Of a stretch of DNA of 64,000 nt, positions 43,809-64,000 are shown piece by piece; within the stretch, counting starts at the first letter, position 1, and each line of letters opens with the position of its first letter. The DNA is from an uncultured Gammaproteobacteria bacterium (GTDB lineage Bacteria > Patescibacteriota > Patescibacteriia > Magasanikbacterales > UBA922). The position numbers and the translations under genes are program-made. Below the pieces are notes generated by a model that saw only the letters and a list, made by a program, of their open reading frames with translations, had not been told where the DNA came from and made no database searches. The DNA lies in assembly GCA_964592785.1 (NCBI GenBank), contig CAZQHU010000004.1:72-64071 (forward strand), in the 5' to 3' direction.

Positions 43809-45341
43809 AAAGGAGGTGATCCATCCCCAGCTTCCGCTAGGGATGCCTTGTTACGACTTCACCCTGATCACTGACCCTGCCTTAGTCCCCATAAGGAGCC
43901 TTTGGGCGTTGCCAGCTTTCGTGGTGTGACGGGCGGTGAGTACAAGACCCGAGAACGTATTCACCGCGCCGTATCTGATGCGCGGTTACTAGCGAATCCA
44001 ACTTCATGAGGACGAATTTCAGCCCTCAATCCGAACTGAGGCTAGCTTTTTGGGATTAGCTCCATCTCGCGATTTAGCAACCCTTTGTACTAGCCATTGT
44101 ATCATGCGTGTAGCCCTGGACGTAAGAGCCATGCTGATTTGACGTCGTCCCCGCCTTCCTCCCGTTTAAACGGGCAGTCTCGTGTGTACATTTAACACAC
44201 AATAGGGGTTGCGCTCGTTACCAGACTTAACTGTACACCTCACGGCACGAGCTGACGGCAACCATGCAGCACCTATCTAACACCTTCGAAAGCGGGCAAT
44301 GTTTCCATCGCCTTGCAGTTAGTAGTTGAGCCCAGGTAAGGTTCGCCGCGTACCGTCGAATTAAACCGCATGATCCTCCGCTTGTGCGGGTCCCCGTCTA
44401 TTCCTTTGAGTTTTAACCTTGCGGCCGTACTCCCCAGGCGGTGTACTTAACGCGTTTGCTTTTTAAAACGGCACTGAGAGGGTCGATACTCCCAATACCT
44501 AGTACACATCGTTTAGGGCGTGGACTACTAGGGTATCTAATCCTATTCGCTACCCACGCTTTGGTCCATGAGTGTCAGGCATGTTATAGCAAGCTGCCTT
44601 CGCCTTTGGTGTTCCTATCGATATCAGCGCTTATTACGACTACACCGATAGTTCCGCTTGCCTCTCCCAGCCTCCAGTCTGATAGTATCAACAGCAGTCC
44701 CGGAGTTAAGCCCCGGGATTTAACCATTGACTTTTCAGACAACCTGCGGACGCTTTACGCCCAATGAATCCGGATAACGTTTGAGGTCTCTGTATTACCG
44801 CTGCTGCTGGCACAGAGTTAGCAACCTCTTATTCCTAGGGTACCGTCACAAATTCGTCCCCTATAAAAGCAGTTTACACCCCGAAGGGCTTCATCCTGCA
44901 CGCGGCGTCGCTCCATCAGACTTTCGTCCATTGTGGAATATTCTTGACTGCAGCCTCCCGTAGGAGTCTGGGCAGTATCTCAGTCCCAGTGAGGCAGGTC
45001 ACGCTCTCACGCCTGCTACCCGTCATAGCCTTGGTGGTCTATTACACCGCCAACTAGCTGATAGGACATAGGCCTTTCTCCAAGTGATAAATCTTTAAAT
45101 GCGAATGACTTTTGTCCCCGCATTGCCATCGGGTATTAATCCACCTTTCGGTGGGCTATCCCCGTCTTGGAGGTAAGTTACCAATGTGTTACTCACCCGT
45201 TTGCCGCTCGTAACCCGTCCAACACTCTACCAACATTTATAAAAAATATTTTTAGAGTGTTGGTCGGGCACGTCGCTCGACTTGCATGCCTTAAACACGC
45301 CGCCAACGTTCATCCTGAGCCAGGATCAAACTCTCAGTAAA
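43809..45341 (-). rRNA. rrs: 16S ribosomal RNA, about 1.53 kb, not linked to a 23S
   Basis: 5' end GAGTTTGATCCTGGCTCAG (rc at 45315-45334). 3' end GGATCACCTCCTTT (rc at 43809-43822). Internal universal segments such as GTGCCAGCAGCCGCGGTAATAC (rc at about 44790) are present. Confidence 0.9.
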
Positions 45342-50817: not shown

Positions 50818-51009
50818 CAAAAAAACGTCCTTTAAAGACGCTAGAAAAAACTATTTTTTCAAACGTCTGCACCTCTTCGGCGCACATTCACCTTGTCCGC
50901 CATAATAGCGGGGGTTACTACGTTGACCACATTCTACAACAAAGCCAAAAACTTGTCAAGTCCCACCCGCAACGCCTGAGCAAGCTCATGCTTACGATGG
51001 CGGGCCGGC

Positions 51010-51038
51010 TTGACAAAATCCAATAAATGTACTATACT
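51010..51038 (+). promoter_or_regulatory. Candidate promoter TTGACA-17-TATACT for the lipoprotein gene
   Basis: Consensus hexamers with 17-nt spacing about 100 nt upstream of the ATG. Confidence 0.35.
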
Positions 51039-51140
51039 TATCAGTCATTACTGTGTCTGTCTTGGACACGATTGACAATCTAGGCACTGGCAGGAAGCCA
51101 GGCTAGTGAATTCATTTCACGGAAGTGAGGAGGAAACACA

Positions 51141-51653
51141 ATGATCCGCATCATCTTGGCCATGACCATGATCCTGTCCCTGGCCGCCTGCAACGACGAC
51201 ATCAAGGCCGAGCTGGCCCAGACCAAGGCCGATCTGGCTCGGGTCCAGTCGGATCTCAACCAGGTGGTCGAGTACCACCGCCTGACCCAGGCGATCCAGG
51301 AGGAGACCATGCTCCTCCAGGATCTGCGCGAACAGACCCAGACTCTGAACAAGGACCTGGACTCCCTGGCCAATCGCGCCATCCTGGCACGGTCAGCACT
51401 GCCTGCGCAGGCCTACCTCTGTAAGGGCAACCGTTCTTGCGAGGAAGAGACGGCAGCCAAGGCCAAGATCGAGGCTGTGAAGATGAATGAGGAAGTCGAC
51501 ACCCTCAATGCCCGATCCAAGCAACTGGGCGAGGAGACCAGCCTCCACATCACTCGACACAAGCAGGCGGAGACGGCCATGAAGGTCGCACGGGCGGCGC
51601 TCCCACCCGATCTGCAAGAACGCCTCCTCGGAGTAAGGGAGTCTTCCCACTAG
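51141..51653 (+). CDS. Coiled-coil lipoprotein encoded in a strongly GC-rich foreign island
   Basis: Signal peptide with lipobox LSLAAC. Strong RBS GAGGAGGAAACACA-ATG. GC content is far above the background. Overlapping antisense ORFs are artefacts of high GC. Confidence 0.6.
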   Translation: MIRIILAMTMILSLAACNDDIKAELAQTKADLARVQSDLNQVVEYHRLTQAIQEETMLLQDLREQTQTLNKDLDSLANRAILARSALPAQAYLCKGNRSCEEETAAKAKIEAVKMNEEVDTLNARSKQLGEETSLHITRHKQAETAMKVARAALPPDLQERLLGVRESSH

Positions 51654-51772
51654 CTCTTTCGCCGTGACGACATACAGTGTCTCTCTGTACCCCGACCCAG
51701 TCGGGAACGCCAGAGGACCCGTGTCACTCACGGCTCACCCTCTATATTTTTCACGAAGAATATTGAGGATAA

Positions 51773-51804
51773 TAAAAAATTCACCTCATCGGTGAATTTT
51801 TTAT
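51773..51804. terminator. Bidirectional intrinsic terminator
   Basis: AAAAAATTCACC-TCATCG-GTGAATTTTTTATTTC. Confidence 0.55.
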
Positions 51805-51832
51805 TTCTGTGTAATCTGTTATTAATCAGTGT

Positions 51833-52450
51833 TTAAAAATACACTCCCCCACCCGTAAACAAACTAGTAAGGAAATAAATAATCGGCTGAATAAAACGAA
51901 AGCCAAAAAATATAAAAGCTATTAAAATTACAAAACCATATTGTTCCAGCATCATTTTGATCTTATACTGGGAATCGGGTAACAAAGCATAAAGCAACTT
52001 GGAACCATCAAGTGGTGGAATCGGCACAAGATTGAATACTGCCAAAAGCACATTGGCATAAACAATAATATAAAGAAAAACTGTCATGTTGGAAATAGGT
52101 AAATAACGAACCAAGAGCCCAAAAACAAAAGCCAATGTCAAATTACTAAGTGGACCGGCTAGAGCCACCCACACCGGTCCCCATTTTTGATCTTTCAAAT
52201 TGTAAGGATTGTAGGGCACTGGCTTGGCATAGGCAAAAAGAAACCTCCCGGCTGTGAAAAAAAATAACAATAGTGGCATTATGATGGTGCCCCATTTATC
52301 TATATGAGCTCGTGGATCCATGGTCAACCGTCCAGCATAGCGCGCTGTCGGATCACCCAGCATATCTGCCATCCAACCATGAGAATACTCATGAATAATG
52401 GAGGAAGGAATAATAACAACGAGAAAAAATAATAAGGGTAAAAAATCCAT
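51833..52450 (-). CDS. Peptidase M50 (site-2 protease-like) membrane metalloprotease
   Basis: HEYSHG (HExxH) in the first TM helix; polytopic. Confidence 0.7.
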   Translation of the reverse strand: MDFLPLLFFLVVIIPSSIIHEYSHGWMADMLGDPTARYAGRLTMDPRAHIDKWGTIIMPLLLFFFTAGRFLFAYAKPVPYNPYNLKDQKWGPVWVALAGPLSNLTLAFVFGLLVRYLPISNMTVFLYIIVYANVLLAVFNLVPIPPLDGSKLLYALLPDSQYKIKMMLEQYGFVILIAFIFFGFRFIQPIIYFLTSLFTGGGVYF

Positions 52451-59798: not shown

Positions 59799-59875
59799 GC
59801 GCTGCTAGCTCAATTGGTTAGAGCAGGGGCCTCTTAAGCCCAAGGTTCTGGGTTCGATTCCCAGGCGGCGCACCA
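59799..59875 (+). tRNA. tRNA-Lys (anticodon CTT), CCA encoded
   Basis: GCGCTGC-TA-GCTC-AATTGGTTA-GAGC-A-GGGGC-CTCTTAA-GCCCA-AGGTT-CTGGG-TTCGATT-CCCAG-GCGGCGC-A-CCA. Confidence 0.85.
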
Positions 59876-59952: not shown

Positions 59953-60027
59953 GCCTCTGTGGTGTAATGGATAACACAACGGTCTTCGGAACCGTTGATC
60001 CGGGTTCGATTCCTGGCGGAGGCACCA
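59953..60027 (+). tRNA. tRNA-Arg (anticodon TCG), CCA encoded
   Basis: GCCTCTG-TG-GTGT-AATGGATAA-CACA-ACGGT-CTTCGGA-ACCGT-TGATC-CGGGT-TCGATTC-CTGGC-GGAGGC-A-CCA. Confidence 0.85.
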
Positions 60028-60099
60028 TGTAGTGAGCGGTTCTGGGCGACCTAGAGGGTTACCTCTCTAGTACAAGTCGCCAACTGACCGAGACACTTA

Positions 60100-60128
60100 A
60101 AAAGACACCAGTTTTAGGTGTTTTTTTG
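60100..60128 (+). terminator. Intrinsic terminator isolating the tRNA pair from the downstream island
   Basis: AAAAAGACACC-AGTTTTA-GGTGTTTTTTT. Confidence 0.6.
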
Positions 60129-60166
60129 ATTGACTTAGTGGCTCAGTAAAGGTAAACTTAAGGCAT

Positions 60167-62086
60167 ATGTTAGATAATAAACAAGGAGAAATAATTAAAA
60201 AATTATTTGAAGATGCTCAAAAAAATGGGATGCTAAATTATATTTTTTGTTTATTAAGAGTTGGGAGTATTGAAAATGAAATAGAAGATATATTTGTTAC
60301 TATCAACCAATTAAGCAAGAAATTTAATAAGGCCGAATATGGTAAGTTATACAACTTAATAACACTAGAGAAATCTCTCGAACTTTTTGTAAATCTAATA
60401 CGTGGTAAAAAAGACCAAAGGTATGATCCCCATCCTTTCAGATCACTTTATAAGTTGGATGGCCAACAATATAAAAGACCGGACAGATTTGATATGTTGA
60501 ATTTTCTAATAAATATATATAAGGAAGAAAATTTGACTTTATTTTGTGATTTCTTTAATTCTCTTAAACGGGAAACATCTTCTGACAGTGATAATAAACT
60601 CAATATATGTAATTTTATATTAGATTTTAGTGATACATATTTTGAGGAATTAAAAAAGTTTAATCAATATCCAAAGATATATAATATATCAAGTGGTTTT
60701 ACCACCCTTGAATTGCTGACGGGGGGAGATTTTGGTTTAGTCGGTTTTAATTTGCACCATTCAAATGGATCAGTTTCTACTTTTACCAGGGAAAACGGTA
60801 AAGCTCTTTGTCTCAATTTAGACATATCAGAAGAAGTTATACCTTTCGTAGGTGACCTTGGTAAATTACAACCGATGTGGATGTATAATGGTAGACCATT
60901 ATATGAATTTGGTGTTTCTGGTCGTTATAATAAAATTGGTGAGTGGAAACCGCTGGTCTACCCAGGAGAAAGTCAATTAATTTATGACAAAGTTCAAGAA
61001 ATGAGGAATGCTGGAGTTGATGATAAAATTGTGTCCTGCTTCTTCTATATGATGATTACTTGTCATCATTGTATAGAATTTATTGTTACAGGCAATTTTT
61101 CATTGCCAGACGATTACAGCCAGATGAATTTTTCTAGCACAAACAAAGAAAAGGAATTTATAATGCATATAAATAAAATTGAACTACCGGAGGTTGACAA
61201 TTATTCAGCCAACTTAAAAGTATACGATTGCACCATGCAACTACCAGGTATTGATACAGAAGACATAAAAGATGCTTTAATCGCCATAGACACATTTTTA
61301 GCCAGACTTTCTTTTCATTTTTCTGCAAAATATGATTGGTTACTAAAATATAATATTGTTGACAGTGATCCCGGTATGGCTCATATAAAAGATAACGACC
61401 TTATTGATAAATTTTTGAAAAATTTTAATACTAAAAGTTCTTTAATTGCCGACGTTGCCATTCATTGGTATAACAGCGCAAAACAAACAAAGAATGTTTT
61501 TCAAAAATTTTTAAGCTACTGCATTTCAATAGAGTCAATTCTTGTTCCTTACAGTAATAATGAAATTAATTTAAGTACTGTAACACAGGAAAGGCTTGGA
61601 TCCAATTTAATTAATGATAAGTTAGCATGTATACGAAACAAATTTAGTTTATATGAAACAGATCCTGAAAAATTTATTCGTGAGAGTTACTTTGAATGTA
61701 TAGTCGGCTTAAAAAAAAGAATAACTCAGTCATTAAAAACTATATTTGGAGAATCTGATCAGTGTTATATTTTATTCTGTACAAAATCTGACAAATTGGA
61801 TATTTATGATATAAGGAGTGGTTTGGCCCACGGAAATTTGAAGAATTATGAAGAAAAAGATATTGAGATAGTCTCAAAAAGAGTAGGAGACGTAGAATAT
61901 ATTTCTCGCAAACTTATTTATAGAATATTGATAAATGATCAAGAAACCAATGACGAAAACACATACTCCCATTTGAATTTTTCTCTCAGTAGAATGACCA
62001 ATGACCCCAGAACCACAGGTTTGTGCACATCGTTATCTATGATACCCAATAAGGATTGGAAAATTAAACTGGATTGGCTTCTTTAA
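60167..62086 (+). CDS. Hypothetical 639-aa protein in a very AT-rich island (no recognisable domain)
   Basis: Long uninterrupted ORF, distinctly lower GC than neighbours, downstream of two tRNAs and a terminator. No Walker or nuclease motifs found by eye. Confidence 0.5.
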   Translation: MLDNKQGEIIKKLFEDAQKNGMLNYIFCLLRVGSIENEIEDIFVTINQLSKKFNKAEYGKLYNLITLEKSLELFVNLIRGKKDQRYDPHPFRSLYKLDGQQYKRPDRFDMLNFLINIYKEENLTLFCDFFNSLKRETSSDSDNKLNICNFILDFSDTYFEELKKFNQYPKIYNISSGFTTLELLTGGDFGLVGFNLHHSNGSVSTFTRENGKALCLNLDISEEVIPFVGDLGKLQPMWMYNGRPLYEFGVSGRYNKIGEWKPLVYPGESQLIYDKVQEMRNAGVDDKIVSCFFYMMITCHHCIEFIVTGNFSLPDDYSQMNFSSTNKEKEFIMHINKIELPEVDNYSANLKVYDCTMQLPGIDTEDIKDALIAIDTFLARLSFHFSAKYDWLLKYNIVDSDPGMAHIKDNDLIDKFLKNFNTKSSLIADVAIHWYNSAKQTKNVFQKFLSYCISIESILVPYSNNEINLSTVTQERLGSNLINDKLACIRNKFSLYETDPEKFIRESYFECIVGLKKRITQSLKTIFGESDQCYILFCTKSDKLDIYDIRSGLAHGNLKNYEEKDIEIVSKRVGDVEYISRKLIYRILINDQETNDENTYSHLNFSLSRMTNDPRTTGLCTSLSMIPNKDWKIKLDWLL

Positions 62087-62093
62087 GTATATT

Positions 62094-62741
62094 ATGGCAG
62101 ATATTAAAAATAAAATTATCGTGAATAGAGCATCATTTTTATATAAGGATGGTTTATTTATTAATGACTATAATTTAATATATTTTTTAGTTGATAAAAT
62201 TGTTGTGGGTGATAGGAAACACAAAGAATTTTGTACAGAAAAAATATTATCAAAGTTACAAGAAAAAGCATGGCGAAAAAAATATAGTTCTTATAACTTT
62301 ATTTTTTTAATGCAAGAATATTTTATTAATAGCAAAATTCTAGATATAAATTTTATAATGGCCTGCCAAGTTTTAGAAAATATGTATTTTTATACTTTTG
62401 ATGATGATCCAAATTTCGGCACCAAAGTAAAAAATTTCTATAATTTACTTTTTAAATATAAATTTAGAAAAGATTCTAAAAATATCATCCGAATTTTGAG
62501 AAATAATGTAGCACATTCAGGTTTAATTGAAGGAGTGCCAAATAAATTACCGCGTGAATTAAAAGATATCAAAAAAGTAAAGGAGTTTTTGGACAAGGAA
62601 AAGGGTGGATTAAGAGCATTGGCATTTGAAACCACGTATCTTATAGAAAACATTTTTATTCGTATAATTGGTCTTAAGGACGAAGATTTGGGCAGGAATG
62701 GAAGACCACCAGAGCACAGTATCTTTTTTAAAGTAAATTAG
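62094..62741 (+). CDS. Hypothetical 215-aa protein with a HEPN-like Rx4H motif (putative RNase/Abi-like effector)
   Basis: ILRNNVAHSG at residues 134-143 fits the HEPN R-x4-H consensus (Abi_2, Csm6 and Cas13-type RNxxxH). It starts 8 nt after the upstream gene, so co-transcription is likely. Confidence 0.5.
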   Translation: MADIKNKIIVNRASFLYKDGLFINDYNLIYFLVDKIVVGDRKHKEFCTEKILSKLQEKAWRKKYSSYNFIFLMQEYFINSKILDINFIMACQVLENMYFYTFDDDPNFGTKVKNFYNLLFKYKFRKDSKNIIRILRNNVAHSGLIEGVPNKLPRELKDIKKVKEFLDKEKGGLRALAFETTYLIENIFIRIIGLKDEDLGRNGRPPEHSIFFKVN

Positions 62742-62767
62742 AAAGAGAGGCCTAACACCTCTCTTTT
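62742..62767. terminator. Bidirectional terminator
   Basis: AAAGAGAGG-CCTAACA-CCTCTCTTTTAAA. Confidence 0.55.
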
Positions 62768-62779
62768 AAATTCATATTG

Positions 62780-63730
62780 CTAATCCATCGGCCAGTTCTC
62801 TTTAAATGCTTCACTAACTATCGTTGCTTCCTGATCCTTATTCACCCCGTACTTCTGCATCACCTGCCCTCTATAAATATCTGCTAGTCGGTTATATTCA
62901 TCAGTATTCTTTTGGAAATTATTCACATTATCCATTGGGTACTTTTTCTCGGCTTCGTTTCTTGCTTTATCCTCAGCGGCCACAATTTCTTTAAAAAATT
63001 GTCTACGTTGGCTTTCACTTAGACCAAACTTGTCTTCGCTCTTACTTTTTTGTGCTAAATATTCTTCCAGCTTATCTTTAATTTGTATCGTCGTTTTGTA
63101 CCCAGAGCGATTATTGGAACTGGCGATACTGGCATTCACATTACCAAGCTCGCCACCTGGTGCCCAGATTGCACTAGCAACATCATACATGCCATTTATT
63201 GATTCCTTATCCGAATACAGATTTAAAATTATTTCATCAATATCTTTGTCCTTGTTGGTTAAATCAGAAATAATTTTATCTACCGTCGGTTTTACTTGCT
63301 CAACCTTAATTGTTGTTGGCACCACCACCTTGTAAGACATTCTTTTGTTGGTAGGTAACTTTTTTAGTTCAGCAGTAGTGTAATCAGACAAACTTTTATC
63401 GCCCATAGCCTTACGACTCATGTCTTCGGTTTTTACAATCTCATAACTCACAGCACTTGTAGTAGTGTCTATTTTTTCTTCTGGATTGTTTGGCTTATTG
63501 TCCGTATTTTCAACGCTTACAACTTCTTTGTTTTCATCTGGCAGTTTTTCTACTGGCGGAGCGATTGCTACAATCGCTATAAAATCTATCACCCATAAAG
63601 AAATAAATATAATCGAAATTATTCTTCTTGTTGCTTTGTCTCTCAGCAACATTTTATATAGTGTCGGCTTTATCATACCTACTATCCACAAAATAGGTAT
63701 AATTACTAACAACAGAACCAAGATAGTCAT
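62780..63730 (-). CDS. Hypothetical membrane-anchored protein (2 N-terminal TM helices plus a large soluble domain)
   Basis: Hydrophobic N-terminus MTILVLLLVIIPILWIVG... and IISIIFISLWVIDFIAIVAIAPP. Confidence 0.45.
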   Translation of the reverse strand: MTILVLLLVIIPILWIVGMIKPTLYKMLLRDKATRRIISIIFISLWVIDFIAIVAIAPPVEKLPDENKEVVSVENTDNKPNNPEEKIDTTTSAVSYEIVKTEDMSRKAMGDKSLSDYTTAELKKLPTNKRMSYKVVVPTTIKVEQVKPTVDKIISDLTNKDKDIDEIILNLYSDKESINGMYDVASAIWAPGGELGNVNASIASSNNRSGYKTTIQIKDKLEEYLAQKSKSEDKFGLSESQRRQFFKEIVAAEDKARNEAEKKYPMDNVNNFQKNTDEYNRLADIYRGQVMQKYGVNKDQEATIVSEAFKENWPMD

Positions 63731-63757
63731 ATTGTTTGTTAAGTTAATAATTACTTA

Positions 63758-63930
63758 GGCCGAAGAGTTTTTGTATATAACAAAAACGGACGCCCGACCT
63801 GCGAAACAACATTTGGCGTCCGAAGATGCCTCTTGTGTTTTGGTCGGAACGCCCGTTCCAACTCACAAGAAGGCACAAAAACTAGTAAGCTTTTGGTTTG
63901 CTCTTCGGACTATAATAATGTTGTTTCGCA
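63758..63930. other. About 170-bp imperfect multi-arm palindrome at the island boundary
   Basis: GGCCGAAGAG/CTCTTCGGAC, GCGAAACAACATT/AATGTTGTTTCGC (13 bp perfect), GCCTCTTGTG/CACAAGAAGGC, and a central GGAACGCCCGTTCC. Confidence 0.5.
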
Positions 63931-64000
63931 TTAATAATATACTAGATTTTAGCTAAATTGTAAAGAACAACCGAATTTTTAACCCTGTAATATAAGCTCT

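Follow-up and report, generated by a model that had tools for sequence, protein, structure and literature searches.

Do two adjacent AT-rich genes that lie behind a pair of tRNA genes form a single toxin-like module, or are they separate passengers of something larger? The genes in question occupy positions 60167–62741 of a 64,000-nt stretch of DNA (hereafter the window; forward strand of contig CAZQHU010000004.1, assembly GCA_964592785.1) and encode proteins of 639 and 215 amino acids (aa). A sequence-only reading of the window had taken the larger protein for a partner with no assignable motif, the smaller one for a HEPN effector, and the two together for a two-gene module. The account that we favour, and which we consider fairly probable, is a different one: the locus would be the cargo slot of a mobile element at tRNA-Arg(TCG), holding two separate single-protein candidates for HEPN abortive infection, which we liken to ApeA and RAZR.

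In the 639-aa protein, however, a motif can be assigned, namely IRSGLAHG (R550-x4-H555, encoded at 61814–61831), and the first part of the earlier description has to be corrected. A word-index search found six homologs, and the size of the family was determined by an exhaustive profile search, which recovered 499 cluster representatives (50% identity) at E≤1e-3 and 161 at E≤1e-30; in a genome scan the members are distributed over Clostridia, Pirellulales, Phycisphaerae, other Planctomycetota, Blastocatellia, Gammaproteobacteria, Saccharibacteria and Patescibacteria. In a 64-sequence alignment R550 and H555 are present in all sequences and R...AHG in 52, the family form of the motif being IRxxLAHG, and the full set of invariant positions comprises R208, Y254, E304, F305, D354, K394, G528, R550, H555, P614 and W631. 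An AlphaFold prediction based on a 7-sequence alignment had a predicted local distance difference test score (pLDDT) of 49 and was not used; the one obtained from the 64-sequence alignment reached a pLDDT of 90 and a predicted template modelling score of 0.83. In this model a helical N-terminal accessory domain (approximately residues 1–167) is followed by a β-rich middle domain (approximately residues 171–400), which contains the invariant R208, Y254, E304, D354 and K394, and by a C-terminal HEPN domain whose core is a four-helix up-down bundle. The top structural matches of the latter are the HepT toxins of HEPN-MNT systems (PDB 8xdj, 7ae2 and 5yep). A Foldseek search with the whole model against PDB and BFVD gave no significant match, and there is no full-length match in PDB. 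Clearly, the model shows that the protein combines a HEPN fold with the corresponding motif at its C-terminus, and by analogy it would act as a metal-independent RNase at a composite site formed upon dimerization, the invariant polar residues of the middle domain being candidates for a ligand pocket.

The relation of this family to annotated ones is rather distant. The Pfam matches found among the 64 members are all subthreshold and concern MauJ (PF17419, in 41 members, falling on the HEPN region), HEPN_RiboL-PSP (8), HEPN_Apea (3) and HEPN_MAE_28990 (2). Around 20 genuine short forms of ∼385 aa do not have the N-terminal domain and start at the invariant GRYNKxGEWKPLVYP region, and one representative has another N-terminus, so that the N-terminal ∼250 residues are accessory. 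The possibility of an effector swap, in which the N-terminal and middle domains would be joined to other C-termini, was considered and rejected, as the matches restricted to the N-terminal part form a continuum of lengths typical of gene fragments.

The 215-aa protein is probably a small HEPN protein. Its sequence ILRNNVAHSG, pointed out in the earlier reading, contains R136-x4-H141 (RNNVAH, encoded at 62499–62516), and this assignment is reinforced by the fact that R136, N137, N138, A140, H141 and G143 are invariant in all eight members of the family (RNNxAHxG, within a wider IIRIxRNNxAHxG), as is a C91-Q92-x2-E95 helix located upstream of the motif. Apart from the close relative of the window, the members are ∼40% identical to the 215-aa protein, and they have so far been seen on Patescibacteria-type contigs only, one of them from a Patescibacteria metagenome-assembled genome. 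The HEPN part of the PADLOC CARF_HEPN profile matches the protein at E 0.017, the best matches of individual members to Pfam are HEPN_AbiU2 (E 0.011) and HEPN_Apea (E 0.02), and PADLOC PD-T7-4 matches three of the eight members, with E from 8e-4 to 0.04, in a collinear alignment that spans the motif and stays within its HEPN part. Weak matches to HEPN families are the only ones that profiles give over this region. Aligned by hhalign with the HEPN domain of the large family, the small family pairs at the motif helix and the next long helix (H3-H4) only, with E 0.022, and searches of PDB sequences with the small family gave no match. Its genes are found in diverse surroundings: after a DpnII restriction-modification system and GmrSD; solitary, after a GIY-YIG gene; among phage-like genes (SNase, ParB-methylase, and an M78 peptidase with a helix-turn-helix protein); 4 nt past the gene of a zinc-ribbon-rich protein that is unrelated to both the 639-aa protein and the KAP NTPase described below (locus L022); and, in locus L008, with a start that overlaps the stop of the gene for that KAP NTPase. 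From these gene contexts a role in defence or abortive infection appears plausible.

The manner in which the genes reached this site can be read from empty sites. These were found through the RNase III protein encoded upstream, which is present on five other contigs. Three contigs from three different samples (L023, L024 and L025) are 99.3–99.8% identical to the window by blastn until exactly 60025, beyond which they carry a different terminator and a convergent operon of a response regulator and a histidine kinase, unrelated to the window; at the junction, GGCGGAGGCAC is followed by CATGTAGTG in the window and by AAAAAACCC in L023. The fact that near-identical contigs have empty sites and that the break falls exactly at the 3′ end of tRNA-Arg indicates that the island was really inserted. 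The same element is carried by L008, which is more distantly related (82–85% DNA identity), beside tRNA-Arg(gcg) and in another neighbourhood: the two tRNA-Arg genes are different isoacceptors and are diverged throughout, and a homolog of the gene upstream of the element in L008 sits ∼59 kb away within the window. The left end of the element, which measures ∼115 nt up to the −35 box if the last bases of the tRNA are included, is nevertheless ∼96% identical in L008. On the opposite side, the last 22 nt of the window encode ELILQG and a stop, identical to the C-terminus of the large serine recombinase of L008, which has Resolvase, Recombinase and Zn_ribbon_recom domains and whose next gene matches phage terminase large subunits in 1,126 phage records. 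Thus the earlier statement that the window contains no integrase is nominally right, yet it misses a recombinase whose C-terminus is encoded at its very edge. Taken together, the empty sites, the left end shared with L008 and the 3′ end of the recombinase gene bear out the notion of an integration hotspot at the tRNA gene and of a tRNA-adjacent, compositionally distinct insertion. No direct repeat of the left end of at least 10 nt is found within 62742–64000, the right end of the element lying past 64000, and positions 60026 to at least 64000 are probably the left arm of a strain-specific, prophage-like integrative element.

The ∼111-nt left end (60026–60136, corresponding to 711–821 of L008) is in itself better conserved (∼96%) than any coding part of the element (∼80%). 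It holds a perfect 37-nt compound hairpin (60045–60081), and this 37-mer has no second copy in the window and none in the scans of viral and metagenome collections.

The composition of the locus is also foreign. The guanine plus cytosine (GC) content of the gene pair is 0.291, against a window mean of 0.379 (standard deviation 0.027), which makes it the lowest-GC 2.6-kb segment of the 64 kb, with only 0.08% of the sliding windows being equally low. Folding is strong in the spacer 3′ of tRNA-Arg (−41.4 kcal/mol, z −5.1), the end of which is a 13-bp hairpin with a U-run, and the terminator that closes the pair folds on both strands (z −4.0 and −3.7). The two genes have a putative common transcript, from a promoter at ∼60130 to the terminator at ∼62750. 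Most of what had been described of the layout therefore stands: the two co-directional open reading frames (ORFs), the tRNA-Lys/tRNA-Arg pair directly upstream, the AT-richness, the strong terminator after the tRNA pair, the bidirectional terminator, the convergent ORF with its hydrophobic N-terminal segments and the palindrome, detected here as nested inverted repeats. The genes are separated as stated, although by 7 nt (62087–62093) and not by 8.

Whether the two proteins belong together was addressed by analysing the loci of their relatives. Using tblastn, the small-family gene was found in none of 11 other loci of the large family, and the large-family gene in none of five other loci of the small family. 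Moreover, between the window and L008 homology is lost at 60136 and found again from about the start of the small gene onwards, which indicates that a single slot is occupied by the 639-aa gene in the one and by the KAP NTPase gene in the other, these two being the only alleles known. In L008 (852–3896) the slot holds a KAP-family NTPase of 1014 aa, which has a GMGKS Walker A motif and, towards its N-terminus, several hydrophobic segments. The lack of co-occurrence, the HEPN domain of the large protein itself and the exchange for a KAP NTPase argue against the proposed module of a large partner and a HEPN effector; from these comparisons we infer that the 639-aa and 215-aa proteins are independent, and, most simply, the end of the element would offer a cargo slot in which independent defence genes gather.

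The surroundings of the large family are those of a candidate for a horizontally mobile, single-gene defence system, as judged from the raw listing of neighbours. In L003–L005 the gene comes after a BREX cluster (PglX, PglZ, BrxL) and before a SIR2 gene, and in nine further loci the genes nearby comprise those for a STAND NTPase of Avs-like type that has a PD-DExK domain, DruA (E 8e-181), PDC-S65, a type IV restriction enzyme, methyltransferases, two serine recombinases, an rve integrase, type IV secretion system pilins and a topoisomerase, so that the contexts are rich in defence and mobile-element genes. No neighbour family is conserved across the large-family loci, and the neighbours of 208 aa in L003 and 217 aa in L001, examined as possible relatives of the small family, are not such. 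A SIR2_2 protein recurs 1.4–4.2 kb downstream of large-family genes in L003 (14210–15991) and L010 (13331–15088), the two being 40% identical and the genomes unrelated; this may reflect a recurrent defence-island association.

A number of observations weigh against the account of independent defence cargo. Ordinary metabolic and housekeeping genes are also found among the neighbours of the large family. The small family has eight known members, and all HEPN profile matches of the small protein are below the family thresholds. A tblastn search of 50,697 GenBank phage records found neither the large nor the small protein, scans of IMG/VR viral contigs found neither family, and scans of metagenome contigs likewise gave nothing. 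The prophage status is drawn from the relative L008 together with the last 22 nt of the sequence. Finally, the two genes are 7 nt apart with a common promoter and terminator, and the small gene remains constant while the upstream gene is exchanged, its start overlapping the stop of the KAP gene in L008, so that the small protein could work with whichever upstream protein is present.

These last features are precisely those expected of a true two-gene system, made up of the resident small HEPN protein and an exchangeable upstream sensor (the 639-aa protein here, the KAP NTPase in L008), with either one governing the other, for example by way of a HEPN-HEPN heterodimer or by release dependent on nucleoside triphosphates; the position of the small gene 4 nt after an unrelated upstream gene in L022 goes in the same direction. 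We nevertheless regard such a system as unlikely, with some modest chance of being correct, as the small protein is missing from all 11 other loci of the large family, which has a complete HEPN motif of its own and no conserved neighbour, while the small gene has no close preceding gene in L006/L007 or L019 and the hhalign comparison of the families pairs only the motif helix and the helix that follows. A more elaborate version of the arrangement has a still smaller chance: in phage-like elements of Patescibacteria, the small HEPN protein would be a resident effector or regulator on which swappable upstream proteins (a membrane KAP NTPase or the 639-aa protein with its own HEPN domain) dock, possibly as an asymmetric HEPN heterodimer, and R208, Y254, E304, D354 and K394 would form a new ligand-sensing site or a second catalytic one.

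Slightly less likely again is that the genes serve the phage, by host takeover, by exclusion of competing phages only or by processing of the element's own RNA. Their place beside a recombinase at a prophage-like end would suit this proposal, and the hypervariable membrane-protein neighbour (see below) could be a superinfection-exclusion factor; yet the large family is mostly chromosomal, in settings resembling defence islands, and the mentioned searches of phage records and IMG/VR contigs found neither family. The proposal in part overlaps with the account that we favour, since superinfection exclusion by prophage genes is in practice defence. A module of the toxin-antitoxin type that stabilizes the mobile element by addiction, with one HEPN toxin neutralized by the other protein or by an unseen small RNA, seems improbable: HEPN-MNT toxins are the top structural matches and the genes lie on a mobile element, but library scans of the three island proteins (the 316-aa product of the convergent gene included) detected no MNT nucleotidyltransferase or other recognisable antitoxin, both families occur as solitary genes, and the proteins are far larger than minimal HEPN toxins. 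That these are housekeeping RNA-processing enzymes tied to the upstream RNase III and tRNA genes is suggested only by the proximity of rnc, nusB and two tRNA genes and is hardly credible, as the empty sites contradict it, the entire island being missing from near-identical strains, and as the distribution is sparse and patchy across phyla and the composition foreign.

Table 1. Coordinates of the features of the locus within the window.
Feature	Position	Strand	Remarks
tRNA-Lys(ctt)	59799–59875		Upstream of the 639-aa gene; ARAGORN and Rfam
tRNA-Arg(tcg), integration target	59953–60027	+	ARAGORN and Rfam; empty-site contigs match the window to 60025
Conserved left end of inserted element, ∼111 nt	60026–60136	+	Hairpin 60045–60081, terminator hairpin with U-run, −35 box
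Promoter-like site	60130–60158		−35 box TTGACT at 60130–60135
639-aa protein gene	60167–62086	+	ORF
Predicted HEPN domain of 639-aa protein, C-terminal, helical	61424–61936	+	Residues ∼420–590; nearly invariant E456 helix upstream of the motif
215-aa protein gene	62094–62741	+	ORF
Bidirectional terminator hairpin, common to convergent genes	62736–62772		Folds on both strands
316-aa membrane-anchored protein gene, convergent	62780–63730	−	ORF; hydrophobic N-terminal segments
Structured intergenic element, nested palindromes, 248 nt	63731–63978	−	Between the recombinase stop and the membrane-protein gene start
Serine recombinase gene, 3′ end	63979–64000	−	Last six codons (ELILQG) and stop; gene runs off the window

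Beyond the pair, the arm holds the convergent membrane-protein gene and the intergenic element on the 5′ side of this gene. When the three island proteins were scanned directly, no significant match emerged in Pfam, NCBIfam, PHROGs or PADLOC. The 316-aa gene is kept beside the small gene in L008 and L009 (71–73% identity by tblastn) and is a mosaic: compared with L009 its 3′ half is 100% identical and its 5′ half 51–76%, and against L008 the reverse is seen. Localised recombination or diversifying selection may be suggested by this mosaic, as would be expected for a surface-exposed or superinfection-exclusion protein. The intergenic element remains 97–100% identical in L008 and L009, whereas the adjoining gene is merely 51–90% identical; it has nested inverted repeats at 63756–63930, and the entire intergenic stretch folds at −82.8 kcal/mol (z −7.6). 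No Rfam family matches it, and it could be an attachment or regulatory site of the recombinase or a structured RNA of a new type.

Elsewhere in the window, a second strain-specific insertion of ∼870 bp (50964–51834) has a GC content of 0.56–0.60, against 0.38 for the genome, and is missing from L023, which is otherwise 99% identical. Its product is a lipoprotein-like coiled-coil protein of 170 aa (51141–51653) with a signal peptide and a LAAC lipobox, and no Rfam family reaches its gathering score on it. The window also holds a complete 16S rRNA gene (43809–45341, minus strand), and as no 23S rRNA was detected within the 64 kb, the rRNA genes appear to be unlinked.

Mobile elements and immunity in Patescibacteria, members of the Candidate Phyla Radiation (CPR), are little known, and the exact junctions and empty sites described here define an integrative phage-like element with an exchangeable cargo slot in an apparent genome of this group, an affiliation drawn here from the relatives of the small protein. 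HEPN abortive infection and the carriage of defence cargo at prophage ends are already established, so that no new principle is involved. What appears to be new, on the basis of sequence comparisons, are the non-HEPN domains of the large family and the N-terminal region of the small one, which have no annotated relatives, neither family exceeding any library threshold. The large family in particular, which spans six phyla or more and is covered by no model of Pfam, NCBIfam, PHROG or PADLOC, joins a HEPN fold to two domains that have no detectable structural relatives, and in view of its occurrence beside BREX, SIR2, Avs-like and Druantia genes it can readily be proposed as a candidate single-gene anti-phage system of a new type.

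It is known that HEPN domains dimerise and thereby form a composite R-x4-6-H RNase site (Anantharaman et al. 2013, PMC3710099), and that in single-protein HEPN systems the other domains restrain the enzyme until a phage-derived cue appears, the cue being deoxydinucleotides for ApeA (bioRxiv 10.64898/2026.01.26.701840) and ring-shaped phage proteins for RAZR (PMC13017515). In the account that we favour, a large serine recombinase, whose gene starts outside the window, would drive the element, inserted at the 3′ end of tRNA-Arg(TCG), and the cargo slot just inside its conserved end would hold both HEPN genes. The non-HEPN domains of the 639-aa protein would, as in ApeA, keep the enzyme inactive until an infection cue is sensed; two HEPN domains would then pair into a composite R-x4-H active site, whose cleavage of RNA would result in translation arrest and abortive infection. 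The 215-aa protein would be a self-contained HEPN RNase in the size class of RAZR and AbiV, with a different, non-zinc N-terminal region, and it may follow an identical logic, being off until a phage-derived cue leads to RNA cleavage. RNase activity, anti-phage role and activation mode are in both cases what we infer from these analogies.

How far do the analogies reach? ApeA is a single-protein HEPN anti-phage system (Gao et al. 2020; structures in the above bioRxiv study), and the 639-aa protein resembles it in size (∼600–640 aa, from a single gene) and in its architecture, in which N-terminal and middle domains that are not HEPN and belong to no known family precede a HEPN domain with insertions around its four-helix core, as well as in the solitary occurrence of its family in defence contexts (11 loci with no conserved neighbour). 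The sole PDB sequence match of the large-family profile is in fact Ec4ApeA (9hxm), with E 1.4 at the conserved-Glu helix, and the subthreshold matches to Pfam HEPN_Apea in three of the 64 members reach 8.5e-4 at best. However, none of these 64 has a match to PADLOC ApeA at E≤1, and ApeA monomers are described as predominantly α-helical, whereas the modelled middle domain of the 639-aa protein is β-rich. As to the 215-aa protein, the system PD-T7-4 is now named RAZR (ring-activated zinc-finger RNase) and consists of a Cys4 zinc ribbon and a divergent HEPN domain that uses R146 and H154 (PMC13017515). The two are alike in being single proteins of similar size (211 positions in the PADLOC model, against 215 aa) with a C-terminal HEPN domain, which is divergent in RAZR and probable in the 215-aa protein, and PD-T7-4 homologs often lie beside an integrase gene (Vassallo et al. 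preprint), as does the small gene here. They differ in that the 215-aa protein itself has no PD-T7-4 match, that the small family has no match to Pfam DUF4145, and that its motif is R-x4-H and not R-x7-H. Further, the 215-aa protein has two cysteines and no Cys4 zinc ribbon, the members of its family having one to four cysteines and no CxxC motif, and for this last reason the small family is not counted as a member of RAZR.

The HepT toxins of HEPN-MNT systems, although the nearest in structure, differ from what is found here in two respects, as the island has no MNT partner, none of its three proteins matching a nucleotidyltransferase family, and as the HEPN domain makes up the C-terminal third of the 639-aa protein and has insertions. 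The slot as such has its own parallels. KAP NTPases are known as a type of single-gene defence, Tmn (transmembrane), and the slot of L008 holds such a KAP NTPase, its membership of the Tmn family being putative. Finally, although the host is here apparently Patescibacteria-like and not an enterobacterium, the presence of alternative cargo at one position near the end of the element is the arrangement described for the defence hotspots of prophages and satellites in E. coli.

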